Below, in pieces: positions 25,216 to 55,650 of a DNA stretch of 64,000 nt. The notes beneath the pieces are model-generated. The model was not told the DNA's origin and did not search any database. It saw only the letters and a list, made by a program, of their open reading frames with translations. Position 1 is the first letter of the stretch; every line of letters begins with the position of its first letter. The stretch comes from Nitrospinota bacterium (GTDB lineage: Bacteria; Nitrospinota; Nitrospinia; Nitrospinales; VA-1). The position numbers and the translations under genes are program-made. The DNA is taken from contig JAYNIA010000003.1 of assembly GCA_038108555.1 (NCBI GenBank), positions 60,088 to 124,087 of the forward strand, read 5' to 3'.

Positions 25216-25593
25216 TTAATTAACAGGTGCCAAGTGAGGAATGCCGCGAATTATCATCGCGGCGACCTGGGCACCGGTTGTAGCGCCGACAACGGTTAAC
25301 ACCGCTCGCAGGTAGCGTTTGCTTCCCTTGTATCCAACGCGCTGATTGGTATTAGAAACCAGGTCCACCAAAGACCCTTCCTGGTCATTGGCATTGACAT
25401 CGTTCCAGTTGGAATTATCATCGGATTCCTGAATCTTTGGTGTATGAGTACCATCCGTGACCGTACCAACACTAAAAACTATGGCCGAGGCCCGGAAATC
25501 CCTGATATCGACCCCGGCACCATTTTCATCTGCAATATAGTCATCAGGATCAATTGAATTGATCGCATCAAAATTGTTTTTCATATCTTTCAT
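25216..25593 (-). CDS. hypothetical capsid-associated protein (125 aa)
   Basis: Immediately downstream of the major capsid gene. Acidic. Confidence 0.45.
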   Translation of the reverse strand: MKDMKNNFDAINSIDPDDYIADENGAGVDIRDFRASAIVFSVGTVTDGTHTPKIQESDDNSNWNDVNANDQEGSLVDLVSNTNQRVGYKGSKRYLRAVLTVVGATTGAQVAAMIIRGIPHLAPVN

Positions 25594-25639
25594 TTGATTC
25601 TCCGTTATTTTTTTATGTATTTTTCCTTCAAAAAAACGA

Positions 25640-26836: not shown

Positions 26837-26956
26837 ATTGAACTCTCCTTAAAAAAGAAACCCCCGCCAGACCTTCCATGAAATGCCATATATAATAATG
26901 AACCTTTTCATTATTTTTGGCCCAAACGAGGGGAATAATAGTTAATTTCTAATAGA

Positions 26957-27643: not shown

Positions 27644-27648
27644 CTTCT

Positions 27649-28833
27649 TTAAATAGAAAAGTTTTGCAAACGGGGAACCAATTTATCCCCTCCAGGCACA
27701 TCATCGAATCCGACCATCCGGCGTTTTTCATTCAAAGTTAAAAAATCACTTTGATTCACACGATTCCATAAAGCCTCCTGGTCTTCAGACAAGGCTTCAA
27801 TACCATCTTTATTGAAATCCAAGAAAAGGTCTTTACCGAATCGGGGAACCAGCCAATTGTTAAGCGCATCGCGTAATCGATTCAAGAAAGGACAAACGAC
27901 TTCTGTGTACAAAGCTTTCCGTGCTTCTTTACGGTTTTGATAAGTTGCCGGGCCCAAACCTATCAACTCGGGAGGTACGTTATAAACCTGAGCAACCTGC
28001 AGGGCGCTCATTTTTAATCCTTCAATCCAATCCATATCTTTTGGAGAGATACCCAACTCTTTCCATTCCAGATCCTGTTCCAATAACAAAGGGTCCCTGG
28101 CGTTATTCACTCCTTGTATCTGCCGACGCATTTCTGATTTCAATCGTTCAAACTGTTCATCGGTCAACCGTTGCTTGCAGGTCAAAGCCCCGGAGGGAAC
28201 CGCCGCATTTTGTAGTAGCGACGCATTCCATTTGTCACCATTGTTTAATTTATCAATGGCTAAAGCTGCTACCTGTATTGGTGATAAACCATACCAATCG
28301 TCCAAAGGATGAAACAATTTGAGATGAAGAATCCGTTCCGGCGAAAATTTTACCTTCCGTCCGGATACCGTATACTCGTACCCACCTACAAAATGTATGG
28401 GATCAGGAATCACCCTCATTCGATCTGGACGCAAGGTATATAGTTCTTTGGGAGGGCTATTATGAGGTCCGATACATTCCAGATAAGCGTTGCCGGACAA
28501 ATAGAAAAAGCTGGCAACCGATTCCACCCATTCAAATTTTCCCTGCAATGGATTAGGCCTTTCCATTAGATCTAGAATAGGATGCTGCAAAACTTCCCGG
28601 CGTTCGCCATTAGGCAAATTACGAAATAGCAACCAAGGAACACCCGCAACAGCTGAGGAAATTTCTTTCACACAAGAAAATAGAACACTATTTTGTGTGA
28701 ACCCTTCTTTGGCTAAAATTTCGTAATCCGTCTTGGGGGAAACTCCGTGTCCTCCAGGCAACCACAACGTCATGGCGCGGGTGGCGGTACTACCTTTTTT
28801 TCTGATTCTTTTGAACCAATCTATTAATTTCAT
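27649..28833 (-). CDS. portal protein, HK97 family
   Basis: 394 aa. Position and overall pattern. Confidence 0.85.
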   Translation of the reverse strand: MKLIDWFKRIRKKGSTATRAMTLWLPGGHGVSPKTDYEILAKEGFTQNSVLFSCVKEISSAVAGVPWLLFRNLPNGERREVLQHPILDLMERPNPLQGKFEWVESVASFFYLSGNAYLECIGPHNSPPKELYTLRPDRMRVIPDPIHFVGGYEYTVSGRKVKFSPERILHLKLFHPLDDWYGLSPIQVAALAIDKLNNGDKWNASLLQNAAVPSGALTCKQRLTDEQFERLKSEMRRQIQGVNNARDPLLLEQDLEWKELGISPKDMDWIEGLKMSALQVAQVYNVPPELIGLGPATYQNRKEARKALYTEVVCPFLNRLRDALNNWLVPRFGKDLFLDFNKDGIEALSEDQEALWNRVNQSDFLTLNEKRRMVGFDDVPGGDKLVPRLQNFSI

Positions 28834-28882
28834 AATTTTAAAAAACTAATATGGGAGAAAGAAAAACAAAAAAATATCCTTC

Positions 28883-29668
28883 TTAAATAACAGCAGCTAT
28901 ACCGGTTGGATTTGCAAACGATGAGCTGGTGTATTTTGTGTTGGGAAATTTATGTTGAGGACGCCCTTCTCTATCAATTAAAACAATCCAATCTTCTGGC
29001 TGATAGTAGGTGACCCAATAAAACCCGTTCGAGGGATCATAGGTAATCCCTTGCAACGAAGTAGGAACTGGATCCAGCTTTTCCAGGGTAACCGAATGGA
29101 TAAAATTCATACCCAGATCAAAAACAAACAGGGAGTTAAAAAAATTATCGGTAATGATAATTCGTTGAAGTACCGGATCGATACACAAATCCTGAGGGCT
29201 GGCCAATCCTGATGTTGATAGATCAAAAGTCTGGATCAAACTGCCATTTCTTTGGAGATGATAAAGGTTGAAGGATGTGAGTCCGTCCGATATTAGCCAA
29301 AGAGTAAAATCCCATGGATCAATGCAAATACCTTCAATTTGAGTTGCGGAAGGGTCGAATTGATCAATCCCAAAAGAACTTATGGGAGAACCATTTTGGG
29401 AATCAATATTCCAAACACGAATATCGGTCGATGTTCCGCTGCTATTATTTTCGGTAGAAACCCATAGAGAATTATCCGAAGGGTCCAATGCCAATCCATC
29501 AGGAGGTGGATTGACAGGAGAAAAAACGCTGGAGGGGATAGAGTTTCCTATTTCATTTCCCCATTTATCGACCTTAAAAATCTTTCTTGCATCGCTTGAA
29601 ATTATTAAGGATCCGTTTAAAAATCTATTATTTGATACAATGGGTGACAGGCTTGAAGATTTAATCAT
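28883..29668 (-). CDS. NHL/SMP-30-like beta-propeller repeat protein inserted between terminase and portal
   Basis: About five or six repeats of the G(L/I).(L/I/Y)DP......W/I type (GLALDPSDNSLWV, GICIDPWDFTLWL, DLCIDPVLQRIII, GITYDPSNGFYWV). The ATG overlaps the upstream stop (TAATG). Confidence 0.6.
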   Translation of the reverse strand: MIKSSSLSPIVSNNRFLNGSLIISSDARKIFKVDKWGNEIGNSIPSSVFSPVNPPPDGLALDPSDNSLWVSTENNSSGTSTDIRVWNIDSQNGSPISSFGIDQFDPSATQIEGICIDPWDFTLWLISDGLTSFNLYHLQRNGSLIQTFDLSTSGLASPQDLCIDPVLQRIIITDNFFNSLFVFDLGMNFIHSVTLEKLDPVPTSLQGITYDPSNGFYWVTYYQPEDWIVLIDREGRPQHKFPNTKYTSSSFANPTGIAAVI

Positions 29669-29964
29669 TACTCACCTGCCAAATAATCGCCCGCAGATGA
29701 CCCCGCTGAATTGGTACCCACTCGCACCCAAAAACCTTTTGCTTCAAACCCAACGGGACAATTTTTAAAAATTACAATTTCTCCCTCAACATTCTGCACT
29801 TCAAGATCACCTGCAACTCCACAATAAATAACGCGACAAACCCTGGAAAGAGGGTTTACTGCATGTGGCGTTACTGTTTCCCAATGCACAGGTGGACTTT
29901 CCAATCCCTGCTGGGAATATTTATCTTTCCAACGGCTGGACGCTAACAATATGTCTTGGGGCAT
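29668..29964 (-). CDS. 98-aa protein, possibly head-spike-base-like (RcGTA rcc01079-type). Tentative.
   Basis: GLESPPVHWETVTP....L....RVIYCGVAGDLEVQNVEGEIVIFKNCPVG matches my recollection of the spike-base family consensus (gl.sP....itP.d..L....al.vG.aGdl.v....G..v.f.nv.aG). Not verified. Confidence 0.35.
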   Translation of the reverse strand: MPQDILLASSRWKDKYSQQGLESPPVHWETVTPHAVNPLSRVCRVIYCGVAGDLEVQNVEGEIVIFKNCPVGFEAKGFWVRVGTNSAGSSAGDYLAGE

Positions 29965-29992
29965 ATTATCTTCCTTTCATATCCGGAAATTT

Positions 29993-31585
29993 TCAGGTTA
30001 ATCTTCTAATTCGTGGACCAGACAACCCTGAGTTAATCAAATTAAAAAACATTTCCAGAGCATCGGGTCCGTCATCGTGATTGGCTTTGGGGAAATATTT
30101 CAATTGATCCAACAACAAGGTCTGGTTTTTTCGAAATCGAATCAATCCATTTTTAATATGAGGTTGCAATTTTGAAATCCTCAAAATTTTATCGTTAATG
30201 GGTCTCACCCCTTCGACTGGAGGATAAATTTTCCTTCGTGCTCCTTCTTTAATTACCTGATCTTTAAACAATTGTTGAAACTGTACTTCCTCAATGGCGA
30301 TTTTTTCAAAGTGATACTTTTTTTGATATTCGAACAGGGTTTCCATTATTGAATCAGGATGGCGTTTTTCAATATCAGCTTGAATAATATCGATGATGCC
30401 ATCGGGGTTTACACAACCTACTAATATTGCAGATGGGTCTGCTTTTTTAGATGCTGACCCCATGGAAGGATCAACCGCGCAGTAGAAATGACTGTTTTTG
30501 TCTAAAAAAATTGGTTCCGGAATAAACCGAAACCATTCTTCCTGAAAAAGACAATCATCAGGGTTAACCGGTTCATTTTGCTTCTCTGAATCAAAATAGG
30601 CAGGTCCATCGGAAACTCGCATCGTCATCAAAAAGTAATACGATTCTGCTTCGGGCCAGAGAACTTTTGTTCCCTCTAACATTTCGATTTTATGTTTATC
30701 AAAAAACCTTTTTGCTCTGTTCTCCGCATCAACAACTCTGGAAGTAAAAAGTGATTCCCATTTTTCCCAAAGTTTTGAAGAAGACCATTTGATTACAGCT
30801 TTCCACTTTTTACCATGCCAACCCGGCCTGACTAATAATCTTGAAAGTAAAGAGTCGTAATGAAGAATTGTTCCCACCACTATGAAAACGGTAGAGCGAC
30901 CTCCAATTTTCATTAGGGCTTTAAAAAACCATTTACGATCTTTTTCACGTTGGTCAGGGGAATCAATATTTTCATCATCTTCCAGGTCATCGCAAATAAC
31001 AAGATCAGGTCTCCGGTTTCCATGGCGTGCGCCTCGAAACCGTTTTCTTTTTCCACAACTGCGAACAGCTACTCCATTTTTCGTAACAATTTTTGTGGCC
31101 TTCCAAGTTCTACCCGAACCACAAACCTCTGGGAAGTCCTCTATCAACCTTTCATTCGCTTCAAGTTCAACTTTAATCTGCTCCAGAAGCTCTTCTGATT
31201 GGTCGGAGGTATCAGAAACTAAAACAATAAATTTTTTTCTTAATCCGACAATGCACCAAAGGGGTAAGATTAAAGAAGAGAGTGTTGATTTAGCATTGCC
31301 GCGGGGAGCGGCCAAAGCTTCTTTACTTCCTTTGCCGGAAACTTGCGATTCAATTATTAGCTGGCCAAATCGTTTGAACATTTCCTCATGCATTTGGGAG
31401 CATTTTTCGGTCAGGTGATGCGGGAAATAATGTCTGGCAAAAAACTTCAAGTCTTTTAGAGCTTTTTCTTTGTGTTTTTCTTTTTGTTTATGGCTCCTTT
31501 TATTGAAGGGTTTGAGCTTTTCTTTAATTTTATTTCCTGTTGCCTCTTTTGGCCTTTTGCTTCTAATTCCTGGTAATCCCACCAT
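29993..31585 (-). CDS. terL: terminase large subunit
   Basis: Walker A-like AAPRGNAKST, Walker B LVICDDLEDDE, and C-terminal nuclease motif HDDGPDALE. The start is uncertain, either the ATG at 31585 or the TTG at 31450. Confidence 0.85.
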   Translation of the reverse strand: MVGLPGIRSKRPKEATGNKIKEKLKPFNKRSHKQKEKHKEKALKDLKFFARHYFPHHLTEKCSQMHEEMFKRFGQLIIESQVSGKGSKEALAAPRGNAKSTLSSLILPLWCIVGLRKKFIVLVSDTSDQSEELLEQIKVELEANERLIEDFPEVCGSGRTWKATKIVTKNGVAVRSCGKRKRFRGARHGNRRPDLVICDDLEDDENIDSPDQREKDRKWFFKALMKIGGRSTVFIVVGTILHYDSLLSRLLVRPGWHGKKWKAVIKWSSSKLWEKWESLFTSRVVDAENRAKRFFDKHKIEMLEGTKVLWPEAESYYFLMTMRVSDGPAYFDSEKQNEPVNPDDCLFQEEWFRFIPEPIFLDKNSHFYCAVDPSMGSASKKADPSAILVGCVNPDGIIDIIQADIEKRHPDSIMETLFEYQKKYHFEKIAIEEVQFQQLFKDQVIKEGARRKIYPPVEGVRPINDKILRISKLQPHIKNGLIRFRKNQTLLLDQLKYFPKANHDDGPDALEMFFNLINSGLSGPRIRRLT

Positions 31586-31914
31586 TGCTGGATAACTTTT
31601 TCTTCAATTTTTTCGACGTGATCCCCTATTAAGTGAGCTGCTGAAACTTCTTTGTTTTCAGCTAAATAAACCGCAACTGTTTGAAGAGTTTCTGAAAGCA
31701 GTTGCATGGGGTCTATCTTCCCGGTTTGGATTTTAAGTTTGAGTAAATCCTGGATTTTTCCAATATATGCACAATAAACACGGTGGTTTTTCAAATCGTC
31801 AGGTGATTTTTTAATCAGTTTCTGAACTACCTTTTTATTTTCCTCCAACTCATTTATCAGCCTTGATAAATCCGATAATTCACCATTTAAAACTTTAAGC
31901 GATCTTGTTGTCAC
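31456..31914 (-). CDS. putative terminase small subunit (by position only)
   Basis: 152 aa, helical, with a Lys-rich tail. Overlaps the annotated terL ORF by 130 nt. Confidence 0.3.
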   Translation of the reverse strand: MTTRSLKVLNGELSDLSRLINELEENKKVVQKLIKKSPDDLKNHRVYCAYIGKIQDLLKLKIQTGKIDPMQLLSETLQTVAVYLAENKEVSAAHLIGDHVEKIEEKVIQQWWDYQELEAKGQKRQQEIKLKKSSNPSIKGAINKKKNTKKKL

Positions 31915-32260
31915 TTACATTCAAGGCTCCTACAATTTGATTTACCGATTTATTTAGTTCATTAAGCTGTTTAAAAATCCTTGAAATAAGTCCCTCCGTT
32001 TTACCCACGGCAATATAAAAAGCTTTTTTTTCTACATATTGCTCAAAGTTGTATTTTTGATCGCTTTGCCTGGTTTTTTCCAATTCACGAAGGAGGTTTT
32101 CCATTTCTTCCAGATTTTGTTTTAGATCATTCAACCTTCTATTATTTTCTCCAATCATCCAGCGAACAAACCATCCAAGGGTTCCCAAAGTAAATAATGC
32201 GAAAAAGGTCAACCAGGGGGTTAAAGTTCTAAATAGCTCCAGGGACATATGGAATCTCAA
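31895..32260 (-). CDS. membrane-anchored coiled-coil protein (i-spanin-like architecture)
   Basis: N-terminal TM LTPWLTFFALFTLGTLGWFVRWMI, followed by a coiled-coil (NDLKQNLEEMENLLRELEKTRQ). Confidence 0.4.
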   Translation of the reverse strand: MRFHMSLELFRTLTPWLTFFALFTLGTLGWFVRWMIGENNRRLNDLKQNLEEMENLLRELEKTRQSDQKYNFEQYVEKKAFYIAVGKTEGLISRIFKQLNELNKSVNQIVGALNVSDNKIA

Positions 32261-32292
32261 AAAACGGAGTGTTATTAATAGATTTTTTTCAA

Positions 32293-32526
32293 TTAGGAGT
32301 GAGGAAAATTTACTTTTTTCACGACCTCATGGATTACCTCTTCCTGATTATTTTTTATAGCAGCCCTTAAAGTTGAAAGCCCCACTGCCTCCAAAACCCA
32401 TGTCATCGAGTCACTGGATACAAACTCATGAAGGGAAATATTACCGGTGGAAAAATTTAAAAATGATATGAAAAGCATCAAAACTGAAGTGAGATAAGTC
32501 TTTCTTCCCTTTAACCAGTCCATCAT
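32293..32526 (-). CDS. small membrane protein, holin-like
   Basis: 77 aa. KGRKTYLTSVLMLFISFLNF TM segment plus a second amphipathic segment. First gene of the operon. Confidence 0.4.
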   Translation of the reverse strand: MMDWLKGRKTYLTSVLMLFISFLNFSTGNISLHEFVSSDSMTWVLEAVGLSTLRAAIKNNQEEVIHEVVKKVNFPHS

Positions 32527-32580: not shown

Positions 32581-32981
32581 ATTTTAGGTAGGAAACAATC
32601 CTTTGCACAAAGTATTGGGGAGATAAATAGAATTTTTGGGCATTTTTTAATTTTGAGTAAATTTACAATTTATAAATCCTTTAAAAAAAGAATGCCAACC
32701 TCTCCTCTCACTATATGTAATTCAAAGGAAGGTAATAAATTCCTAAACTATTGGAAAAAGAAGGTTTTTTTTCAGTAAAAATGAAGCATTGAAAATTCAA
32801 AGTGACTGGAAGGAAAATTAAAAATTTAACGAAAAATTTTTTGGGTCTAAAAACTTTTGTTAATACATGAGTTGAGTCGATAGATCTTTTTTACAATTTT
32901 TTCATGTTGCTTTTACAATTGTCATTCTATATATTGACGCCTCAATTCCCCCTACAAACGATTTTAATTGCTCCGGTTTTT

Positions 32982-34352
32982 ATGGAACCCAAAGAAACTA
33001 TTTGGAAAAAATGTCTCGAAAAAATTGAGGAAAGCATCCTTCCTGATAGTTTCGCAACCTGGTTTTCATCCACGTATCCCCGGAATATGGATGACGGGTT
33101 AATAACCATCGCTGTTCCCAACCAGTTTTACAGAAAATGTTTAATTGAGAACTACCGGGAATTAATAGAGGACACTCTAAAAAATGTATCGGAACAACCC
33201 CTCTTGGTGGACTTTTGTGTTGAATCGGAAAAAGTAGCCCAAACAGAACCACAAAAACATACCGCAGTCGCTGTTGAGGAACCGGAACCTCGGGGCACTT
33301 CAATTAAAACAGAGTCTTGTACTAAAACACTCAGCCCTAAGTATAGTTTTTCCAACTTTATCGTGGGTTCGAGCAATCAATTTGCCCATGCGGCAGCTTT
33401 GGCTGTGGCTAATAATCCAACCTTGGCCTACAATCCCCTTTTTATTTATGGCGCTGTGGGTTTGGGAAAGACCCATCTCTTACATGCAATAGGTAATCAA
33501 ATTTGTGAAAACAACCCGGGATCAAGAGTTCGTTACATTTCTGCCGAAAGTTTCACTGTCGATTTGATTGAATCAATCAAAAAAGACAAAATGCCATTTT
33601 TCAGAGAGCGTTATAGGCCCTTGGATATTCTGCTGGTAGACGACATTCAATTCATTGCCGGTAAGGAAAGGACACAAGAAGAGTTTTTCTACACTTTCAA
33701 TGCTCTTTACGAATCACACAAACAGGTTGTAATTTCGAGTGATAGATATCCTAAAGATATTCACAATATGGAAGAAAGGCTGCGTTCCCGGTTTGAATCC
33801 GGTTTAATTGCCGATATCAATCCTCCGGACTTGGAAACCAAGGTTGCTATTCTCTACAAAAAAGCGGAGCTCCATAAAAAACACATTCCACAAGACGTTG
33901 CTATCTTTATAGCAAGCAACATAAAATCAAATATCCGGGAGCTGGAAGGGTTCCTTTTAAGGATTATCGCTTACTCGTCTTTCACTCACCGGGAATTGGA
34001 TTTGGAGTTGACTAAAGAGGTTTTGAAAGATTTTACGTTTGATAAAACAAGGAATTTTACCATCCAAAATATCCTCAAAACAGTGGCGTCCTACTACGAC
34101 ATAAAAGTGTCCGATATTAAGTCAAAAAGGAGAACCCGGGAGATTTCAAACACCCGCCAAATAGCGATGTATTTGTGCCGGGAACACACAAAATCTTCCT
34201 TGCCGGAAATTGGTAAACAGTTCGGAGGTAAGGATCACACAACGGTAATTTTCTCCCACAAAAAGATATCAAATAGTATCAAAGAAAACAATGATTTACA
34301 GAGCTCCATTCGCGAGATTTTAAACCTGATAGAAAATGGAAAACCTGTATAA
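32982..34352 (+). CDS. dnaA: chromosomal replication initiator DnaA
   Basis: Start trimmed to MEPKETIWKKCLEKIE. Walker A GAVGLGKTHLLHAIG, LLVDDIQF, and the C-terminal DnaA signature GGKDHTTVIFSHKKI. Confidence 0.95.
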   Translation: MEPKETIWKKCLEKIEESILPDSFATWFSSTYPRNMDDGLITIAVPNQFYRKCLIENYRELIEDTLKNVSEQPLLVDFCVESEKVAQTEPQKHTAVAVEEPEPRGTSIKTESCTKTLSPKYSFSNFIVGSSNQFAHAAALAVANNPTLAYNPLFIYGAVGLGKTHLLHAIGNQICENNPGSRVRYISAESFTVDLIESIKKDKMPFFRERYRPLDILLVDDIQFIAGKERTQEEFFYTFNALYESHKQVVISSDRYPKDIHNMEERLRSRFESGLIADINPPDLETKVAILYKKAELHKKHIPQDVAIFIASNIKSNIRELEGFLLRIIAYSSFTHRELDLELTKEVLKDFTFDKTRNFTIQNILKTVASYYDIKVSDIKSKRRTREISNTRQIAMYLCREHTKSSLPEIGKQFGGKDHTTVIFSHKKISNSIKENNDLQSSIREILNLIENGKPV

Positions 34353-34498
34353 AACATGTCAAAAACAGGTTAAAAAAACACCCAAAATAGGGTATAATTC
34401 AGGCAGTAAAAGTTTCCCCCACCTTTGCTAAAAATGCGGCATTTTTACTAACAACTTCTTCTTTAAAATCTACCTTTTAAGTTGGGAACTTAGAGCGT

Positions 34499-37186
<2,688 letters not shown>

Positions 37187-37240
37187 TTTTTTGTCCAAAC
37201 ATTGTTTCTAAAAATATTTTTTCCCAAGAAAGGCTAAAGA

Positions 37241-39658
37241 ATGCCCGAAACCATTGACCCGATAAGCATTGACGATGAAATGAAAAGCGCTTACCTCGAT
37301 TATGCCATGAGCGTAATTATTGGTCGCGCTTTGCCGGATATCAGGGACGGGCTAAAACCAGTGCATCGCAGGGTTTTATTTGCCATGCATGAGACGGGGA
37401 ATGTTTTTAATAAACCTTATAAGAAATCCGCACGTATTGTGGGTGACGTCATAGGTAAATACCATCCGCACGGTGACCAGGCAGTTTATGACACCATCGT
37501 TCGTTTGGCCCAAGAGTTCTCGCAGCGAAACCCTCTGGTAGATGGCCAGGGAAACTTTGGTTCCATCGATGGCGATTCGGCGGCTGCAATGCGATACACA
37601 GAAATCCGCATGCAGGAAATCACCGGAGAATTATTACGCGATTTGGAAAAAGAAACTGTCCAGTTTGTACCTAACTACGACGAGTCGACCAAAGAGCCTT
37701 CGGTTCTTCCCGCAAGCTTTCCCCAGTTACTGGTTAATGGTTCATCCGGGATTGCGGTTGGAATGGCAACGAACATTCCTCCGCATAATTTGGGAGAAAT
37801 TGTGGATGCCGCAGTTTACCTGATTGATGAACCGGAATGTTCCATTGATGATTTAATTCAAATTGTGAAAGGTCCTGATTTTCCCACAAAGGGAATCATT
37901 CATGGAACCAATGGAATTATTTCTGCCTATAAAACGGGACGGGGAATTATCCGGGTAAGGGGTCGTGCAGAAATTGAAACCATGGAAAAAGGAGATCGGG
38001 AAAGGATTGTAATTAACGAGCTACCTTTCCAGGTAAATAAAGCCCGGTTGGTTGAAAAAATAGCAGAACTGGTCAGGGATAAAAAACTGGAAGGGATCTC
38101 CGACCTTAGAGATGAGTCTGATCGCGAGGGAGTTAGGGTTGTTGTCGAGTTGAAAAAGGGCACGATGGGTCAGGTGGTTTTGAATACGCTTTATAAAAAT
38201 ACTCAACTGCAAGATACGTTCGGGGTAATCCTCCTCGCATTGGTCAACAACCAGCCCAAGGTATTAACTTTAAAAGAATATTTACGCTACTTTATTCTGT
38301 TTCGCAAAGAAGTCGTAACCCTTCGAACAGAATTTGACCTTAGAAAAGCCCGGGAAAAAGAACATATTCTTGAAGGATTGAAAATTGCTCTCGATAATCT
38401 CGATGCGGTTGTAAAACTCATTCGAGACGCTGAAGACCCTGTCTCAGCAAAGGAAGGCCTCATGTCCACTTTTGAGTTGTCGGAAATACAGGCGAAGTCA
38501 ATTTTGGAAATGAGATTGCAAAGGTTAACGGGTTTGGAGCGACAGAAAATTTTAGATGATCTGGAAGATATTCGGAAGAAAATCGAAGAGTACCTTCACA
38601 TCCTCGCGAATGAGGACGTAAAACTAAAAATCATTAAAGAAGAACTCATTGAAATAAAAACCAAATACAGTGACGAGCGAAGAACAGAAATAGTTGAAAC
38701 AGATGAAGGGGATCTGGTTATTGAAGATCTGATTGCCGATGAGGATACTGTGGTGGTTTATACCCGTAGCGGTTATATCAAACGCCATTCCGTCGATAAC
38801 TACCGGGCGCAACGGCGCGGTGGCAAGGGGATTCGTGGTATGGATCTTAAAGAGGAGGATGTTGTTGAAAAACTTTTCATTGCCTCAACTCTCAGTCACA
38901 TGCTTGTTTTTACCAGCATTGGAAAAGTTCATTGGTTAAGGGTTTTCTCAATTCCTGAAGTCAGCCGCACAGCAAAAGGAAAATCCATAGCAAATCTTTT
39001 GAGTTTGCAACCTGGAGAATCGATTGCCAGTATTTTATCGGTTCGAAAATTTGAAGAAGATAAATTTGTGATGGTTGCGACGGAACGTGGAATCGTAAAG
39101 AAAACTTCATTGATGGCCTATAGCAAACCCAGACAAGGAGGGGTCATAGGGTTAACCATTGACGATGGAGACCGGTTGATTGGCGCAGAGCTGTGTGATG
39201 GTGAAAGCGATATTCTATTGGCGACTGAAAAAGGGTTTTCTATTCGATTCTCTGAAAAAGAAGCCCGACCCATTGGTAGAACCGGAAGAGGTGTCAGGGG
39301 CATTCGCTTAAAACCAGATGATCGTGTTGTTGGAGCCGAGATAGTTCACCCGGGTAATATGTTATTGACCGTCACCTCGAATGGATATGGAAAGAGAACC
39401 CAGCTTGAGGAGTACCCGGTTCAGGGCCGGGGCGGCCTTGGGGTCATGACCATTCGTTGCAATGATAAAATTGGAGCGGTTGTGGGTATTCAACAGGTAA
39501 CGGATAACGATCAGCTATTGGTTATCACTTCCGATGGAAATATTGTTCGAATGAAGGTAAATGAAATTTCTGTAATTGGCCGAAACACCCAGGGGGTAAG
39601 GCTTGTAGGAACCGGTGAGTCAAACCGGGTTGTAAGTGTAGAAAAACTGGTTGAGTAA
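37241..39658 (+). CDS. gyrA: DNA gyrase subunit A
   Basis: [12 protein letters not shown] and the active-site AAMRYTE. Beta-pinwheel C-terminal domain. Confidence 0.97.
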
Positions 39659-48999: not shown

Positions 49000-50055
49000 A
49001 TGGTCAAAAATCAGGCTGAAGAAATACGGGCTTATCTGCTGGATAAGATCCCGGTGCACCCGAAAAACATCGTGGCCAAAGCAGCGAAGGCATTTGCCTG
49101 CAGCCGGACGACGGTGCACCGGCATTTGAACCGGTTGCTCCGCGATGGAAAAATCATCAAGTCCGGCACCACCCGCCAGGTGCAATATTTTTTAAAGACC
49201 GATAAGAATAAAGAGATTCATGTGTCTTTGAAAAACCCTGTAGAAGAACACAAAGTCTGGAAGGAAAATTTTCAGGAAGATTTTAAAAACTTACCCAAAA
49301 ACATTCGTGAAATTTGCGAATACGGTTTTCAGGAAATGCTTAACAACGCCATCGATCATTCTGAAGGAACCAGAGTAAATATAAAAACGGAGTGGACATC
49401 AGACAACATCGAGTTATTTATTGAAGATGATGGTATTGGAATATTTAGAAAGATTAAGAATACCTTGAACCTTGAAGATGAGCGCGAAAGCGCATTACAC
49501 CTTTCTAAAGGCAAGTTTACTACAGATCCAGAACACCATACTGGGGAAGGAATTTTTTTTACATCAAGGGCTTTCGATGATTTTATCATTCATTCAAAAG
49601 GAATGTTTTATAAACGGGAAAACTTGGATAAAGACTGGTTCATCGAATCAAAGAATAGTTCAAATCTCCTTGGAACAGGCTTATTAATGAAAATTAGCTT
49701 AAATTCAAATAGGGTAATCCAGGATATTTTTTCAGAATTTGTGGGAGAAAACTCGGATGGAATGCCCAAATTTGAAAAAACCCATATTATGGTTGTCCTG
49801 AGTAACTTGGGTGATGAGCGCTATATATCTCGCTCGCAAGCTCGCCGTATAGTTCTGGGTTTGGAAAAGTTCAAACATGTGGTCTTAGATTTTAAAGATG
49901 TTTCAACAGTGGGTCAGGGGTTTGTTGATGAAGTATTTCGTGTGTTTCAAAACAAGTATCCAAAAATTAAAATCGAGTACACCAACGCCAATGACGATGT
50001 GAAATTTATGATTGAGCGTAGTCTTCCACCGTTGCCAAATGGCGTGATAAAATAA
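49000..50055 (+). CDS. wHTH + GHKL (HATPase_c-like) ATPase + STAS-like (DUF4325-like) fusion protein
   Basis: N-terminus ...AFACSRTTVHRHLNRLLRDGKIIK. N-box EMLNNAIDHSE, G1 EDDGIGIF, G2 HHTGEGIFFTSRAF. C-terminus HVVLDFKDVSTVGQGFVDEVFRVF. Confidence 0.65.
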   Translation: MVKNQAEEIRAYLLDKIPVHPKNIVAKAAKAFACSRTTVHRHLNRLLRDGKIIKSGTTRQVQYFLKTDKNKEIHVSLKNPVEEHKVWKENFQEDFKNLPKNIREICEYGFQEMLNNAIDHSEGTRVNIKTEWTSDNIELFIEDDGIGIFRKIKNTLNLEDERESALHLSKGKFTTDPEHHTGEGIFFTSRAFDDFIIHSKGMFYKRENLDKDWFIESKNSSNLLGTGLLMKISLNSNRVIQDIFSEFVGENSDGMPKFEKTHIMVVLSNLGDERYISRSQARRIVLGLEKFKHVVLDFKDVSTVGQGFVDEVFRVFQNKYPKIKIEYTNANDDVKFMIERSLPPLPNGVIK

Positions 50056-50077
50056 AAGGAAAAAATCTATTTAATCC

Positions 50078-50758
50078 ATGGATATAAAATCCGGAATATT
50101 GGCGTTGATGTTATTCCTTTTGCCGCAGGCGGAGTTGAAAACCGTCAACGGTGAAGTGATTTCCATTAAAGACGGCGATACTTTTGTAATAAAGGATCAG
50201 AGGGACAAGCTTTATAAAGTGAGGCTTTCTGATATCGACGCCCCGGAAATTGGCCAACCTTTTGGTCGACCGGCAAAAAGATTGTTGGAGGATTTGGCTT
50301 TAAATAAAATTGTAAGGGTCAACTACACATTGGTTGATAAGTATGGACGATTGATCGGCGAAGTGTTTCTACCCGATGGAAAAATGTTAAACGAGGAAGC
50401 TATTAAAAATGGATTGGCCTGGCATTACCGGGTGAAGCATCCGCACAGTACCTTTTTAGAAAAGATGGAGTACAAAGCCTGGAAAAAGAAAATGGGGTTG
50501 TGGGTGCAGGATAACCCTATTCCTCCCTGGGAGTATCGTCGGGAGGCCCGGGTGCCTAATCCTCCAACCAACGAGGAGAATATGGACTATGACCTTTATC
50601 TGACTTATGGGATTATTGGCGATCCCAAAACCCGGATTTATCAATGGCCCATGTGCAAAGATTATCCTAAATCCCGGAAAGGTTATATTCCTTTTGGAAA
50701 TTTACTGGATGCGGAGACGTTGGGATATCGTGCTGCAAGAGGTTGTGAAACTAATTAA
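50078..50758 (+). CDS. secreted staphylococcal-nuclease-like (SNase/thermonuclease) protein with C-terminal extension
   Basis: Signal peptide MDIKSGILALMLFLLPQAEL. SNase core KDGDTFVI...VRLSDIDAPEIGQPFG...YGRLIGEV...GLAWHY. The C-terminal ~70 aa contain ...IYQWPMCKDYPKSRKGYIPFGNLLDAETLGYRAARGC. Confidence 0.8.
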   Translation: MDIKSGILALMLFLLPQAELKTVNGEVISIKDGDTFVIKDQRDKLYKVRLSDIDAPEIGQPFGRPAKRLLEDLALNKIVRVNYTLVDKYGRLIGEVFLPDGKMLNEEAIKNGLAWHYRVKHPHSTFLEKMEYKAWKKKMGLWVQDNPIPPWEYRREARVPNPPTNEENMDYDLYLTYGIIGDPKTRIYQWPMCKDYPKSRKGYIPFGNLLDAETLGYRAARGCETN

Positions 50759-50819
50759 TGTCATCCCCTATTTCATTGGGTAATATGGAAGCGTTACCTT
50801 TTTTTAATACAAAATAAAA

Positions 50820-52241
50820 ATGACAGAACTCTTATTCGTAGTTGATAACGATGTTCCCCACAGGAGCATGATGACCACCTGGTTGGAAGATCAGGGTTAT
50901 AAGGTCAAAGTTTTTGATAACGGTGAGTTGTGTCTGAATTGTCTTGATGAGAACCCGGGAGCCATATGTCTGGACATCAATATGCCCGGATTGCCGGGAC
51001 TGGAAATCCTGAAACAATTGCGTCTGGCCAACCGGGACATTCCGGTCATGGTGGTCACAAAAGACGATGCATTGGATTCTGCAATTGAAGCCATGAAAAT
51101 TGGTGCTTTCGATTACATGGTGAAGCCGGTGGATAAAATCCGGCTAAAAACCAATGTGGAAAAGGCCATCGAAATGCATACTATGGTTGCAAAAATCCAG
51201 CGTTTGCAGGGAGAGCTTAAAAAAACCTATTCCTATAAAAACATTGTGGGCCAAAGCGAGCCCATGCGCCAGGTTTTCGGGCAGATTGATGAAGTATCGG
51301 GAATTAACATCAACGTTTTTATAGGGGGAGAAAGCGGAACAGGTAAGGAGCTGGTTGCAAAAGCGATCCATTTTAACAGTGCTTATAAGAGTGGAGATTT
51401 TGTGGCTATCAATTGCGGGGCTATACCTGAAGCATTACAGGAAAACGAATTCTTTGGCCATGAAAAAGGCGCGTTTACCGGGGCAGATGATTCGCGACAG
51501 GGAAAACTTGAGGTTGCAAATGGAGGCACTCTGTTTTTAGATGAAATAGGTGAAATGTCGCCCAAGATGCAGGTAAAACTTTTGCGGTTTTTACAAGAAA
51601 AAAGTTTTGAAAAAGTAGGTGGAACAAAAAAAATTCATGTGGATTTAAGAATCATTTCCGCAACCAACCGAAACCTGGAGGATGCGGTCAGAGAAGGCCG
51701 TTTTCGGGAAGACCTTTATTACCGATTGATGGTGTATCTCATCTCATTGCCCCCGTTGAGAGTAAGGAAAGAAGATATACCTCTGTTGATAAATCATTTT
51801 TTAAAAAAATATAAAAACGAAATTCCCAAGAATATTTCAACGGTAAGTTCGCATGCGATGGAAGCGTTGATGCGTTATCCCTGGCCGGGAAATGTCAGGC
51901 AGCTTGAAAATGAAATATACCGGGCGATGGTCACCACTCAAACCAACAGTGTTCAAATTGAAAACCTGTCGCCGGAAATCCAAAAACTGAGAGAAGGATA
52001 TGTCGACCATGGAAACCAATTTGTTCCCTATATGGACCAATCAGAAAAAATGTCCTTTCCCGCCAGTCCGCCATCAATTTCACCAACGTTGACAGGTACC
52101 AAATTTAATGAAATAGAAAAAAATGCGATGATAGAAGCTCTGGATCGTGCAAATGGAAACATCCCTATGGCGGCGAAGGCCCTGGGTATAAGCCGGGCCA
52201 CCTTTTACAGGAAAATTAAAAAATATCGATCTGCCAGTTAA
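50820..52241 (+). CDS. sigma54-dependent response regulator (NtrC family)
   Basis: Receiver domain (aspartate region ICLDINMPGLPG), AAA+ domain (GESGTGKE, GHEKGAFTGA) and a C-terminal Fis-type HTH (AAKALGISRATFYRKIKK). No adjacent histidine kinase. Confidence 0.92.
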   Translation: MTELLFVVDNDVPHRSMMTTWLEDQGYKVKVFDNGELCLNCLDENPGAICLDINMPGLPGLEILKQLRLANRDIPVMVVTKDDALDSAIEAMKIGAFDYMVKPVDKIRLKTNVEKAIEMHTMVAKIQRLQGELKKTYSYKNIVGQSEPMRQVFGQIDEVSGININVFIGGESGTGKELVAKAIHFNSAYKSGDFVAINCGAIPEALQENEFFGHEKGAFTGADDSRQGKLEVANGGTLFLDEIGEMSPKMQVKLLRFLQEKSFEKVGGTKKIHVDLRIISATNRNLEDAVREGRFREDLYYRLMVYLISLPPLRVRKEDIPLLINHFLKKYKNEIPKNISTVSSHAMEALMRYPWPGNVRQLENEIYRAMVTTQTNSVQIENLSPEIQKLREGYVDHGNQFVPYMDQSEKMSFPASPPSISPTLTGTKFNEIEKNAMIEALDRANGNIPMAAKALGISRATFYRKIKKYRSAS

Positions 52242-52260
52242 TTCCTCCCCCCAATTCTCA

Positions 52261-52317
52261 ATTGTCTCAAAAAATCTCATATTGATACTTTTTATCTCAT
52301 TTTGATACATTGTCTCA
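52261..52317. promoter_or_regulatory. direct repeats, candidate enhancer (UAS) for the sigma54 activator
   Basis: ATTGTCTCA occurs at 52261 and 52309. TCTCAT(A/T)TTGATAC occurs at 52275 and 52295, 20 bp apart. The block lies 100-170 bp upstream of the -24/-12 candidate. Confidence 0.35.
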
Positions 52318-52416
52318 TTTTTATTAAATTGTTATTCCGATAACCCAAACTTAAGAAAGCTAATAACCTTTTATAAAATAAAGGGTTTATTATTTTTTCC
52401 CACATTTGTGGGGGTA

Positions 52417-52432
52417 TGGCATATATTATGCA
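52417..52432 (+). promoter_or_regulatory. candidate sigma54 (-24/-12) promoter
   Basis: TGGCATATATTATGCA. GG and GC are at the exact consensus spacing of TGGCAC-N5-TTGCA, with two mismatches outside the GG/GC dinucleotides. Confidence 0.5.
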
Positions 52433-52453
52433 ATTACATATTGTATATGTAAT
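52433..52453. promoter_or_regulatory. perfect 9-bp inverted repeat ATTACATAT-tgt-ATATGTAAT abutting the -12 element
   Basis: Read directly. It may be an operator or a 5'-leader hairpin. Confidence 0.4.
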
Positions 52454-52479
52454 GCATGATATTCGGAAAGGTAAATAAA

Positions 52480-52722
52480 ATGACGACAGCAACCATAAAA
52501 ACTCAATCTCAAAACCCTGTCAAGCGGAGTGAAAAGGTAAGAAAAAAGTCTGGCAAAAAGGCTCCGGCCAAGAAATCTCCCTGGACAGCGGTATTTATTT
52601 TCCTGATCTTTGCGGGTCTGGTGGCATATTTGTTCTCCCCGAACGTTCCAGACTCGCAAAGAGCGGGTTCTACAGGAAAAAATATATCTGAAGGTGGTTT
52701 TGTGGGCAGGTTGGCAAAATAA
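52480..52722 (+). CDS. small Lys-rich single-TM protein (80 aa; the track ORF starts at 52456)
   Basis: MTTATIKTQSQNPVKRSEKVRKKSGKKAPAKKSPW, then TM TAVFIFLIFAGLVAYLF. GAAAGG lies 10 nt upstream of the ATG at 52480. Confidence 0.45.
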   Translation: MTTATIKTQSQNPVKRSEKVRKKSGKKAPAKKSPWTAVFIFLIFAGLVAYLFSPNVPDSQRAGSTGKNISEGGFVGRLAK

Positions 52723-52737
52723 AGAGCTTGATTTGCC

Positions 52738-53154
52738 ATGCCTGTTCAACCAAATGGGAAGATTGTTAAGGACTTCCAAAAAGGCGAAACCCTAATCTGC
52801 GAAGGTGATAGGAGCGATTGCGCTTATATCATGGAATCCGGGAGGGCAGAGGTTCTAAAAAGCCTCCCGAATGGCAGGAGCCAGGTGGTAGGTGTCCTTT
52901 CAGAAAACGATATTTTTGGGGAACTGGGTCTTATTGATGGATTTCCCAGATCGGCTACCGTAAAGGCTTTGGAGCCTTGCCGGGTTTCTGTTTTAACCCA
53001 GGAGGCTTTCAATTCCTTAGCAAAGCATAACCCTCAGGCGCTAATGCCCATATTAAAAATTTTAGCAAACCGTCTCCGGCAAACCCTGGTAATACTGGAC
53101 GAATTAGAATCCAAAGAAAAAACTACAAAATCAATTCCTGTTGGTAGTCTGTAG
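52738..53154 (+). CDS. stand-alone cyclic-nucleotide-binding (CNB) domain protein, paralog 1
   Basis: Phosphate-binding cassette FGELGLIDGFPRSATVKA. 138 aa with no output domain. Confidence 0.85.
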   Translation: MPVQPNGKIVKDFQKGETLICEGDRSDCAYIMESGRAEVLKSLPNGRSQVVGVLSENDIFGELGLIDGFPRSATVKALEPCRVSVLTQEAFNSLAKHNPQALMPILKILANRLRQTLVILDELESKEKTTKSIPVGSL

Positions 53155-53266
53155 CGATACATAATTCATTCCATAAGATCTTCATTGCTCGTCTTGCGGG
53201 GACAGGCCACTTGACGAAAAAATTTAGCCAAATTCAATTCATGTTTTTCATAAGGATGTGAATAAG

Positions 53267-53662
53267 ATGAAAACTAACAATTATAAAAAAGGCGAAGTTA
53301 TTATTAAGGAAGGTTCTCTTAGTACCGGGGCTTTTATCATAGAATCTGGACGCGTAGAAGTTTCAAAAAATTTACCGAATGGAAAATCCCAAGTAATATC
53401 CATCCTTGATAAAAATGATATTTTTGGAGAGATGGGTTTGATCGATCAATTGCCAAGGTCAGCAACGGTCAGGGCTCTGGAAGACAGTTCTATTTCTATT
53501 ATGACGCCAGACAATTTTAATTTACTTGCAAAAAGAAATCCCCAGGCACTGATGCCCATTTTAAAGGTATTGGCTACACGCTTGAGAAGCACACTCAAAA
53601 TCCTGGAAGAAATAGACGAAAAGGAATCCCAAAATCAAGCGGCGGTAGCGGGAAGTATTTAG
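53267..53662 (+). CDS. stand-alone CNB domain protein, paralog 2
   Basis: FGEMGLIDQLPRSATVRA. Start chosen at MKTNNYKKGE by alignment with paralog 3. The track ORF starts at the GTG at 53258. Confidence 0.85.
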   Translation: MKTNNYKKGEVIIKEGSLSTGAFIIESGRVEVSKNLPNGKSQVISILDKNDIFGEMGLIDQLPRSATVRALEDSSISIMTPDNFNLLAKRNPQALMPILKVLATRLRSTLKILEEIDEKESQNQAAVAGSI

Positions 53663-53694
53663 TTAAATTATCAAATAAGTTTTAACCAAAAAAA

Positions 53695-53736
53695 CCTGAG
53701 CCGGCACGGATAAGTGCCGGTTTTTCAGGTTTTTTT
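53695..53736 (+). terminator. intrinsic (bidirectional-looking) terminator after CNB paralog 2
   Basis: CCGGCAC-ggataa-GTGCCGG followed by TTTTT. An outer CCTGA/TCAGG pairing is flanked by A7 and T7 runs. Confidence 0.75.
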
Positions 53737-53856
53737 GTTTTTTTACCATCTAAGGGAATATTGATTTTTCCAAGTTAAAGTAATAGACTGAGAAGAATCT
53801 TGGAAAAGAAAGAATGGATCGTTTTTCCGATATTTATTTCAAAATAGTTGAGGGTT

Positions 53857-54249
53857 ATGAAAACGAGATATTACAAAAAAGGTGATGAAATAATAAAAGA
53901 AGGCATGTTGAGCGATTGTGCCTACATCATCGAATCAGGGCGGGTGGAAGTTTCCAAGCAAAAGCCGAATGGTGAAAAACAGAGCATAGGAATTTTGCAG
54001 GAAAATGACATTTTTGGTGAAATGGGATTGATAGATGGCCTGCCCCGCTCGGCCAGTGTAGTAGCTTTAGAGGATTGCTCTATCTCCATCATGACCCAGG
54101 AAGCTTTTAATTCTCTGGCCCAGCATAATGCTCAAGCTCTGATGCCCATTCTCAAAGTTCTGGCAAAGCGCCTACGTTCTACCCTCCGATTGGTGGAAGA
54201 TTTGCAGGACGGCAAAAACCCCCCCTCTTCCATTGGTGAAAACGTCTAA
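53857..54249 (+). CDS. stand-alone CNB domain protein, paralog 3
   Basis: FGEMGLIDGLPRSASVVA. The ATG at 53857 is preceded by GAGGG. The track ORF starts at the TTG at 53848. Confidence 0.85.
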   Translation: MKTRYYKKGDEIIKEGMLSDCAYIIESGRVEVSKQKPNGEKQSIGILQENDIFGEMGLIDGLPRSASVVALEDCSISIMTQEAFNSLAQHNAQALMPILKVLAKRLRSTLRLVEDLQDGKNPPSSIGENV

Positions 54250-54378
54250 ATTTCACCTTTGTTTTACTCTCACCCCTTTAGTTTTTTGCTCCAGTATTTG
54301 CAAGCTTGCAGTGGAGAACAAAGGTGGTGTAAGCTGAAACATCCAGGTTGTTCCTTAAACTAAACTTTTTAAATTATT

Positions 54379-55650
54379 ATGGTTTCAGAGTTATTGTCTC
54401 CTGCCGGGAGTCCTGAAAAATTAAAATATGCTTTTGCCTATGGTGCCGATGCGGTCTATGCGGGGATTCCAAAGTTTTCCCTCCGGGCCAAGGAAAATCC
54501 TTTTAAAGATCACCTCTTAAAAGAAGCGATTGACTACACCCATAAATTGGGAAAAAAAATTTTTATAACAGCCAATATTCTTCCTCCCAATAGAAAAATT
54601 GAATCGTTTAAAAAATCTTTAGCTCAACATGCTGAGATGGGACCGGATGCTTTTATCATGGCGGATCCTGGAATGATTCAATTCGCCTTGAAAGAGTTTC
54701 CTGAAATTCCTGTTCATTTGTCGGTGCAAACAAACACCATTAACTGGTCCTCGGTCGAGTTCTGGCACAACCTGGGCGTGAAACGGATTATTCTTTCGCG
54801 TGAATTATCCCTTGAGGAAATCAGTGAGATTCATGAAAAAGTTCCTGGAATCGAGTTGGAATCTTTCGTACATGGTGCCATTTGCATTGCATATTCCGGC
54901 CGTTGTTTATTATCGAATTATTTTAACCATCGTGATGCCAATCAGGGAACCTGCACCAATAGCTGTCGCTGGGAGTACGATATTCATGAGGAAAAAGGCA
55001 ATGATATGGAGGAATACCAGCCTCTTAAAGGGCAATATGCCATTGAAGAAAAGCAAAGGGATGGAGAGTTAATGCCAATTGAAGAGGATGAGCATGGAAC
55101 CTATATCATGAATTCGAAAGACCTTCGGGCCATCGAGTTTCTGGGTCCTTTAAAAAAAGCGGGTGTTGTTTCTTTTAAAATTGAAGGCCGGTCCAAATCA
55201 ATTTATTACCTTTCTTTGGTGACTCGAGCTTATCGACAAGCTATTGATGACTTGGAGAACAATCGGAAATTTAATCCTGGTTTGATTGCCGAAATTGGAA
55301 AGACGGCCAATCGGGGTTTCACTTCGGCTTTTTTAATTTCAGCGGCAAACCGTGAAACAGAAAGGTTCGACTCCCCCCAGGAAATAAATCAGCCGCAGAT
55401 TTTTGGAGGTCAGGTGGTTAATGAGCGTTCCGGATGGATGGAGGTCGATGTCAGAAACAGAATCGAGTTAGGCGATGAGGCTGAATGCCTTTCCCCGGGC
55501 GGACAATACAAATTTAAAATAAATGCTATGGAGTCGAAAGCAGGGGAGAAAATTTCTGTGGCACATGGAGGAAATGGAACGGTTTGGGTTCAGGCAGAGG
55601 GCCCGGTAGAACCCTATTCGTTACTGAGTCTTTTTAAAAATTCTTCCTGA
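54379..55650 (+). CDS. peptidase U32 family protein (YegQ/TrhP-like)
   Basis: ELLSPAGSPEKLKYAFAYGADAVYAG N-terminus and the E.F.HGA.C..YSGRCLLS core, typical of U32. Confidence 0.85.
   Translation: MVSELLSPAGSPEKLKYAFAYGADAVYAGIPKFSLRAKENPFKDHLLKEAIDYTHKLGKKIFITANILPPNRKIESFKKSLAQHAEMGPDAFIMADPGMIQFALKEFPEIPVHLSVQTNTINWSSVEFWHNLGVKRIILSRELSLEEISEIHEKVPGIELESFVHGAICIAYSGRCLLSNYFNHRDANQGTCTNSCRWEYDIHEEKGNDMEEYQPLKGQYAIEEKQRDGELMPIEEDEHGTYIMNSKDLRAIEFLGPLKKAGVVSFKIEGRSKSIYYLSLVTRAYRQAIDDLENNRKFNPGLIAEIGKTANRGFTSAFLISAANRETERFDSPQEINQPQIFGGQVVNERSGWMEVDVRNRIELGDEAECLSPGGQYKFKINAMESKAGEKISVAHGGNGTVWVQAEGPVEPYSLLSLFKNSS

Follow-up and report, generated by a model that had tools for sequence, protein, structure and literature searches.

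Stand-alone cyclic-nucleotide-binding proteins beside a putative sigma-54-dependent promoter in Nitrospinota

CbpA of Pseudomonas aeruginosa is a receptor of cyclic AMP (cAMP) that stands apart from the CRP-type factor Vfr, and that has no established output; a review cites it (PMC11139211). In mycobacteria, Rv1636/MSMEG_3811 is a single-domain cAMP binder without an effector, and has been proposed to set the level of free cAMP (PMC11107214). Here we analyse a 64,000-nucleotide (nt) stretch of DNA from a Nitrospinota bacterium (assembly GCA_038108555.1, contig JAYNIA010000003.1, positions 60,088 to 124,087 of the forward strand; hereafter the window), in which a gene for an NtrC-type sigma-54 activator, or enhancer-binding protein (EBP), is followed by a gene for a small membrane protein and by three genes, CNB1, CNB2 and CNB3, each for a protein that consists of a cyclic-nucleotide-binding (CNB) domain only. 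Nitrospinota have been called the most abundant of the marine nitrite oxidisers known (PMC8026999). The original prediction for this DNA, made from its letters, knew of no described system with such a layout. This was borne out, as we found no published description; the literature searched gave no account of stand-alone CNB proteins under sigma-54, nor of signalling by cyclic nucleotide monophosphates (cNMPs) in Nitrospina. Both the EBP and the promoter are typical of their kinds, and the layout is a clade-specific module with clear wiring. We tentatively read the three CNB proteins as trans-acting dimeric cNMP receptors, of which CNB3 would be constitutive, CNB1 and CNB2 would be added on a two-component signal, and CNB1 would work together with the membrane protein (probability about 0.4).

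Sequence and fold of the CNB proteins

PF00027 is the sole Pfam domain of CNB1, CNB2 and CNB3 (E 1e-24 to 1e-26), and no DNA-binding, catalytic or membrane domain was found in them with Pfam or in the structure model of CNB3. This AlphaFold2 model (predicted local distance difference test, pLDDT, 90) comprises an eight-strand barrel, the phosphate-binding cassette (Gly-Glu, then Arg-Ser/Thr-Ala) with its helix, and two further helices at residues 81–90 and 92–117. It matches the CRP-family sensor domain together with its C-helix at a template-modelling (TM) score of 0.72–0.76, the best structural matches being the sensor domains of cAMP-bound Bd1971, GlxR, Mycobacterium tuberculosis CRP and Escherichia coli CAP. 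As judged from model and alignment, each CNB protein is shown to be a CRP sensor barrel with a hinge and a long C-helix, carrying no output domain. The predicted presence of three CNB-only paralogs with an intact FGE(L/M)GLID..PRSA(T/S)V cassette was thus confirmed by Pfam, structure model and CRP alignment, and the pairwise identity, put at 60–65% by eye, measures 57–64%. What did not survive is the notion that a CNB-only protein is an unusual architecture: the best 120 CNB homologues are, without exception, PF00027-only proteins of 107–161 amino acids (aa), and short single-domain CNB relatives also occur in a 50% representative library. To our knowledge, output-less CNB proteins are very common among Pfam architectures, and almost none has a known function. 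A CRP-type transcription factor was considered and rejected, as there is no HTH_Crp match, the proteins measure 130–138 aa and they end soon after the C-helix; the NCBIfam CRP model gives a CNB protein 57 bits against a cut-off of 266.

Residues G54/E55, R64/S65, R105 and T109 of the CNB proteins correspond to G71/E72, R82/S83, R123 and T127 of E. coli CRP, the residues through which CRP contacts ribose, phosphate and adenine. The cAMP-contact positions hardly vary, if at all, among 123 homologues or within any of the three orthologue groups. It is therefore improbable that the CNB proteins bind a ligand other than cAMP or cyclic GMP (cGMP), given that the full cNMP signature and the equivalents of CRP R123 and T127 are conserved and that, among solved structures, the nearest relatives (30–41% identity) are domains with cAMP or cGMP bound. 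Such a ligand would nonetheless fit the established diversity of ligands in the CRP/FNR superfamily (see the review PMC10187061), and a cyclase was seen neither in the window nor in the loci of relatives.

Across the three orthologue groups, 48 of 130 positions are common to all, including the whole hinge and C-helix (NPxALMPILKxLxxRLRxTL), and only four positions are group-specific, all of them conservative. What sets the paralogs apart is mainly the tail of each and the N-terminal extension of CNB1, whose orthologous clade has both an N-terminal extension of its own and a P(V/A)GSL tail. In a neighbour-joining tree without branch support, CNB1 and CNB3 form one clade each, and CNB2 falls into two species-group clusters, one of which lies nearer CNB3 (the group of L010 and L017–L023; loci of relatives carry L numbers). 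That the paralogs are kept as separate clades argues for distinct roles over simple dosage. CNB3 is the slowest-evolving, with a mean pairwise identity within its group of 0.77 against 0.67 and 0.69 in the other two. It is also a CNB3-like copy adjacent to U32 that is found in the loci furthest from the window (L027, L028 and L030), and CNB3 is, by sequence, probably the ancestral paralog.

These features also bear on an unlikely alternative, namely an inducible sponge in which CNB1, CNB2 and perhaps CNB3 have no partner and sequester cAMP or cGMP, lowering the free pool. The binding residues are intact, no output domain is present, two of the copies are predicted to be inducible, and Rv1636 of M. 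tuberculosis offers the precedent of a single-domain cAMP sponge (PMC11107214). Buffering, however, needs no three orthologous paralog groups kept apart, each with its own conserved tail, and a co-transcribed, conserved membrane protein would be superfluous to it; moreover, the surface of the hinge and C-helix is conserved as strongly as the ligand pocket. Should the proteins prove to be sponges, the one precedent known so far would be joined by a case with the CNB fold.

The activator, its promoter and the transcription units

Pfam assigns to the EBP a receiver domain (Response_reg, PF00072, E 2.6e-24), an AAA+ domain (Sigma54_activat, PF00158, E 2.9e-69), AAA_lid_14 and a C-terminal Fis-type helix-turn-helix (HTH; HTH_8, PF02954, E 1.9e-14). 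The translation shows the GAFTGA loop and the Walker A motif GESGTGKE, and the receiver residues are legible in it as well, namely the acidic pocket (D9/D11), the phospho-acceptor D52 (LDINMPG) and the conserved T80 and K102 (VKP); the EBP thus has the complete domain set of an NtrC-type activator. The protein reaches no NCBIfam equivalog cut-off (AtoC, 432 bits where 714 are required; NtrC, 421 where 558.6 are) and is therefore a generic NtrC-family response regulator. Orthologues 66–92% identical to it occupy the same position in Nitrospinota loci. No HisKA-type kinase was found among the adjoining genes by Pfam or in their translations, so the predicted orphan NtrC-type regulator, with GAFTGA and no kinase nearby, is upheld. 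Nor was a cyclase or a histidine kinase seen in the window, for which all translations of open reading frames (ORFs) were inspected by eye and ten candidates searched with Pfam, the part outside 47–57 kb being mostly judged from translations by eye. The gene two positions 5' of the EBP (49000–50055) codes for an HTH, a GHKL ATPase (HATPase_c / HATPase_c_2) and a STAS-like DUF4325 domain, with no HisKA by Pfam. Together with the next gene, for a staphylococcal-nuclease (SNase)-like protein, it makes up a pair (49000–50758) that is kept in all loci, L028 included, which has no EBP; PADLOC gave the SNase-like protein an SNc+LTD match only (1e-11).

To describe the control region, 16 orthologous spacers between the EBP and the small ORF were aligned from Nitrospinota. 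Invariant columns number 36 out of 341; most of them belong to the putative activator sites and the -24/-12 element or, further on, to the ribosome-binding site and start codon of the small ORF. TGGCAY-N5-RTGCW stands at the identical alignment position in all 16 spacers, with TGGCA and TGC invariant, and this clade-derived pattern has a single occurrence in the window (0.11 expected). The element also keeps the consensus GG/GC spacing within TGGCAC-N5-TTGCW, with GG at 52418–19 and GC at 52430–31, which would place the start of transcription near 52443. When one mismatch is allowed, a loose sigma-54 consensus occurs in the window about as often as expected (10 times against 9), so that the argument for sigma-54 rests on position and conservation. 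A scanner for consensus promoters and terminators returned counts equal to those of shuffles and missed a bulged terminator, and no match to an RpoN-box peptide was found in the 807 kb of sequence searched.

Further upstream, the direct repeats reported in the original prediction are present, but they are really two tandem imperfect palindromes, GTMTCA-N3-TGAKAC, spaced 20 bp apart. Within the window this pattern is found at those two sites only (0.19 expected), and sister species carry near-perfect palindromes at the same position (GTCTCA-N3-TGAGAC, GTCTCAnnnTGAGAC). The palindromes lie 113–146 nt 5' of the -24 element, a geometry typical of activator sites. A TGTCTC(A) block in the region of the repeat ATTGTCTCA is conserved in the 16-locus alignment too. 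Closer to the promoter, the palindrome CCCAC-ATTT-GTGGG is kept in most of the aligned spacers, having been lost in L012 and L013, and may be the site of a second regulator. Taken together, the spacers give strong indirect evidence that sigma-54 and the EBP would act at this promoter, and the predicted -24/-12 element with its upstream activator site proves to be conserved across the clade.

The small ORF has its true start at the conserved ATG listed in Table 1. Hydropathy and charge indicate one hydrophobic segment (residues 35–53), an N-terminal side with +11/-1 charges and a 27-aa tail, and the predicted topology has the basic N-terminus in the cytoplasm and the C-terminal tail outside. 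The family comprises 58 clusters with no Pfam match, all its named members are from Nitrospinota, and it conserves an SPW-TM-SPNVPDSQ core (TM, transmembrane segment). By its family clusters and conserved core, the small membrane protein claimed from the letters is a real, conserved gene.

The stop of the small ORF and the start of CNB1 are separated by 15 nt, and no terminator-like structure folds in the CNB1–CNB2 spacer of the window (z +0.67). CNB2, whose start was picked from ribosome-binding-site spacing and gene calls, is followed by the strong terminator that had been predicted between paralogs 2 and 3. None of 200 shuffles of it folds equally well, and a hairpin with a T-run is kept in the orthologous CNB2–CNB3 spacers. 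Most of these spacers also have the -35/-10 pair of CNB3 (TTGATT/TTGCAA, N17, TAGACT/TAAACT/TACACT), and the TTGATT block precedes CNB3 even in L028, despite there being no EBP module. The conserved terminator and sigma-70-type promoter make CNB3 a separate unit; this, and the retention of CNB3 in L028, overturns the claim of a triplicated set under sigma-54. The predicted units are therefore the EBP; a sigma-54 operon of small protein, CNB1 and CNB2 that ends at the terminator; CNB3 under its sigma-70-type promoter; and U32. In one species group (L010, L017–L023), a conserved terminator-like hairpin, GGACCGGTA-loop-TACCGGTCC, with a T-rich run follows CNB1, and CNB2 may there be transcribed separately or partially. 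The CNB3–U32 spacer holds a long imperfect hairpin (54255–54348; -32.9 kcal/mol, z -2.28), and the U32 gene has a clade-conserved -35/-10 pair of its own (TTGCAG at 54306–11, an 18-nt spacer, and TAAGCT at 54330–35 with TG before it). An Rfam scan of 50500–54600 revealed no known RNA element, its one match (E 0.68) lying over the terminator.

Table 1. Coordinates of the features of the locus, in positions of the window
Feature	Position	Strand	Basis
Orphan NtrC-type sigma-54 activator (EBP), 473 aa	50820–52241	+	Pfam domains; orthologues in Nitrospinota
Repeat ATTGTCTCA, half-site-like	52261–52269, again 52309–52317	+	Exact 9-nt direct repeat
Putative activator site 1, ATCTCATATTGATAC, imperfect palindrome ATCTCA-TAT-TGATAC	52274–52288	+	Repeats and conservation in 16 spacers; centre about -162
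Putative activator site 2, ATCTCATTTTGATAC, ATCTCA-TTT-TGATAC	52294–52308	+	As for site 1; centre about -142
G/C palindrome CCCAC-ATTT-GTGGG, 4 nt upstream of the -24 element	52399–52412	+	Most of 16 spacers
Predicted sigma-54 promoter TGGCATATATTATGCA, TGGCAT-N5-ATGCA	52417–52432	+	Conserved position in 16/16 spacers
Single-pass membrane protein, 80 aa	52480–52722	+	Conserved start codon and ribosome-binding site, family, hydropathy
CNB1, CNB-only, 138 aa	52738–53154	+	PF00027, E 2.8e-26
CNB2, CNB-only, 131 aa; last gene of the predicted sigma-54 operon here	53267–53662	+	PF00027
Intrinsic terminator closing the predicted sigma-54 operon	53687–53737	+	Folding free energy -35.1 kcal/mol, z -5.45
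Sigma-70-type promoter of CNB3: TTGATT 53761–66, 17-nt spacer, TAGACT 53784–89	53761–53789	+	Orthologous spacers
CNB3, CNB-only, 130 aa; separate unit	53857–54249	+	PF00027, structure model

Conservation, proposed mechanism and alternatives

Homologues are named Nitrospina, Nitrospinae or Nitrospinaceae, and identical genes stand on contigs of five sequencing runs. The shared order, dnaX-ybaB-recR-hemB-lgt-(HTH/GHKL/DUF4325)-SNase-EBP-small-CNB-CNB-CNB-U32-radical SAM, recurs in metagenome-assembled genomes (MAGs) in which CNB1 is just 59–81% identical. When each species is represented by one genome, every relative with more than 50% identity comes from a Nitrospinota record, bar one MAG labelled Gammaproteobacteria, and the next best matches go down to 33% identity. 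Within 5 kb of distant CNB relatives (46 loci), neither an EBP nor a small ORF was found, and no CNB genes in tandem. In the sequences compared, only Nitrospinota have this layout. Relatives within the phylum do share the arrangement, with EBP, small ORF and tandem CNB genes co-occurring in syntenic loci. The MAG labelled Gammaproteobacteria (OFTM143, L014) has a Nitrospinaceae locus with 70–93% protein identity, and because this is fully syntenic the label is probably a binning or labelling error. A second locus, in a CG11 Nitrospinae MAG (L032, 3937–5861), has four CNB-only genes in tandem (131, 115, 152–157 and 128 aa) that follow a LOG-family-like gene, with no -24/-12 motif seen upstream; tandem output-less CNB genes thus recur in the phylum.

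All Nitrospinaceae loci that have the module retain the adjacency of small ORF and CNB gene, while its remaining content varies. L016 has two CNB genes, and L024 has a bactofilin-like gene instead of CNB2 (5454–6005). In L025, one clean deletion has left codon 8 of the small ORF fused to the CNB1 tail, so that both genes are lost (2770–2860), and the deep-branching L027 has two small-protein paralogs with one short CNB whose cassette is degenerate. From these variants and L033, described below, the common content of the predicted sigma-54 operon would thus be the small protein and a CNB1-like gene.

We envision that the three CNB proteins would be dimeric cAMP/cGMP receptors acting in trans through protein–protein contacts, in likeness to single-domain PilZ proteins and the regulatory subunits of protein kinase A (PKA). 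CNB3 would serve as the constitutive receptor. Phosphorylation of the EBP by an unlinked kinase would add CNB1 and CNB2, and CNB1 would pair with the membrane protein translated just ahead of it, bringing part of the receptor pool to the membrane. The net effect would be that a two-component signal alters how the cell reads its cyclic-nucleotide level. The link between small protein and CNB is favoured by their conserved adjacency, by the operon content of L027 and by the single co-deletion in L025.

Several observations weigh against this reading. The pairing of small protein and CNB1 rests on adjacency and one co-deletion, not on independent losses, and since the whole neighbourhood is syntenic across the clade, gene order alone is no proof of a functional link. 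Neither the window nor the 807 kb of loci yielded a binding partner, cyclase, phosphodiesterase, rpoN or cognate kinase, so we infer both ligand and output. The sigma-54 start is a prediction from sequence, and the hairpin after CNB1 in one species group means that CNB2 is perhaps not always part of the operon. In L028, SNase is directly followed by CNB3, with no EBP, small ORF, CNB1 or CNB2 (4782–4986); in L033, lgt is directly followed by a decayed CNB3, the whole block being gone (1–2870). On the evidence of these two loci, the module is dispensable.

The combination of a CNB sensor with a separate membrane protein could also suggest an anti-phage effector of a split, Pycsar-like kind, which a cyclic pyrimidine would trigger. 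PADLOC models of PycTIR and effector do match the CNB proteins (E 1e-12 to 1e-13), and the small transmembrane protein is encoded directly upstream. These matches, however, cover the CNB domain only; no cyclase, TIR or multi-pass transmembrane effector was found at the locus, which is core, syntenic in the clade beside hemB, lgt and dnaX, and under predicted two-component/sigma-54 control. We regard this alternative as highly improbable, and a Pycsar-like defence assignment was rejected.

Part of the activator recurs in a 246-aa fusion of CNB and HTH_8, found in L081 (238–978), L082 (2553–3293) and L084 (2390–3130) and also in L083 and L085–L087. The family has more than 120 clusters at 90–100% identity, which come from numerous marine metagenome contigs, and its sole taxon-named cluster is Nitrospinaceae. 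The N-terminus is 62% identical to CNB3 of the window. In the C-terminus, the activator family is represented by its last AAA-lid helix, its linker and its Fis-type HTH (residues 349–470 of the EBP, 40% identity, E 3e-22); the protein has no receiver or AAA+ domain. The fusion gene is followed on its 3' side by three to four direct repeats with ATTATTG-N2-CAATAAT and then by a -24/-12-type element (TTGGCATGTCCTGTGCA, about 3641–3657 in L082) and a gene for a secreted, acidic, repetitive protein rich in His, Pro and Asp (238 aa in L084). The fusion may mark a functional partnership of CNB and activator, or it may be a by-product of neighbouring genes. L083 also carries, 5–7 kb from the fusion gene, two genes for MscS-type channels with CNB domains (869–4072), one of which is split, a frameshift in a low-coverage contig being the probable cause; the lineage therefore does possess cNMP-gated outputs. 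Two other proteins of 291–292 aa (P0255, P0316) combine a CNB domain 46–48% identical to CNB3 with a C-terminal region that looks FHA-like by eye.

The fusion bears on a further reading, in which the induced paralogs would remodel heterodimers, pairing through the C-helix with CNB3 or another CNB-helix protein, or would feed back by binding the activator, much as PspA binds PspF; cNMP would then tune sigma-54-dependent or other transcription. Heterodimers are plausible since the C-helices are near-identical, with 48 of 130 positions shared among the three groups against the four that distinguish them, and the CNB3 model superposes on the dimerising CRP sensor module. For the feedback branch speaks the widespread Nitrospinaceae fusion upstream of repeats and a -24/-12-type promoter, yet the fusion is not seen in the window, the repeats of its locus differ from the activator sites of the window, and such a fusion can arise from mere gene neighbourhood. 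We consider remodelling or feedback rather unlikely. Doubtful to a greater degree is the specific claim that the CNB-only proteins partner the sigma-54 activator, or its DNA-bound relatives, in a cNMP-dependent manner, and that the operon encodes a cNMP-gated feedback. If such a partnership were real, the module would couple cNMP signalling directly to enhancer-dependent transcription, and the fusion would be its hard-wired form in a single polypeptide, an analogue of CRP built on a Fis-type HTH.

Under our preferred reading of trans-acting receptors, as under feedback regulation, the locus would add to bacterial cNMP signalling a mode beyond CRP-type factors. It is tractable in several respects: it has a defined, conserved promoter and activator site, three orthologous paralog groups with different predicted regulation, and a candidate membrane partner, and the natural fusion points to the DNA-binding domain of the activator.

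Elsewhere in the window, translations read by eye indicate a prophage-like block (about 14000–32300 and 32904–39658) with genes for a large terminase (29993–31585), portal (27649–28833), capsid (25640–26836) and a long tail/fibre-like ORF (17015–19909). It is bounded by an S24/LexA-type repressor (15124–16017) and a stand-alone receiver protein (16079–16501), both identified with Pfam. As the block adjoins dnaA, gyrB and gyrA, the window probably lies near the replication origin.

Comparison with described systems

The EBP resembles the NtrC family in its receiver, AAA+ domain with GAFTGA and Fis-type HTH, and its target region resembles glnAp2 under NtrC in having two dyad-symmetric sites at a distance of over 100 bp on the upstream side of a GG-N10-GC promoter. 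It differs from that family in being no orthologue of the named regulators, in having no linked kinase, and in a predicted target operon of cNMP sensors without outputs. The Psp system, with PspF and the pspA operon that includes PspB and PspC, is comparable by analogy alone, in that there too a sigma-54 operon adjoins the gene of its activator and encodes a small single-pass membrane protein together with soluble proteins that could feed back on the activator. Here, however, the activator has a receiver domain and there is no sequence relationship, with no Pfam match to PspA, PspB or PspC at the locus.

On the sensor side, the CNB proteins share with CRP/FNR factors (E. coli CAP, GlxR, M. tuberculosis CRP) the barrel, the cassette, the hinge, the dimerisation helix and the cAMP contacts. 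The C-terminal winged-helix DNA-binding domain of these factors is absent, the CNB proteins ending 10–25 residues past the C-helix. CbpA is likened to them as a bacterial cAMP receptor that is no transcription factor. It is larger, has a second, degenerate CAP-like domain, and is not known to be encoded in tandem copies or to be under sigma-54. Rv1636, in contrast, has a universal stress protein (USP) fold where the present proteins have a CNB fold, and is the product of a single gene, abundant and constitutive rather than sigma-54-induced. Closest of all solved domains, by both sequence and fold, is the cNMP domain of the Bdellovibrio EAL phosphodiesterase Bd1971 (39–42% identity), which has been crystallised with cAMP and with cGMP; there the domain is fused to its EAL output, whereas in the Nitrospinota locus it stands alone.

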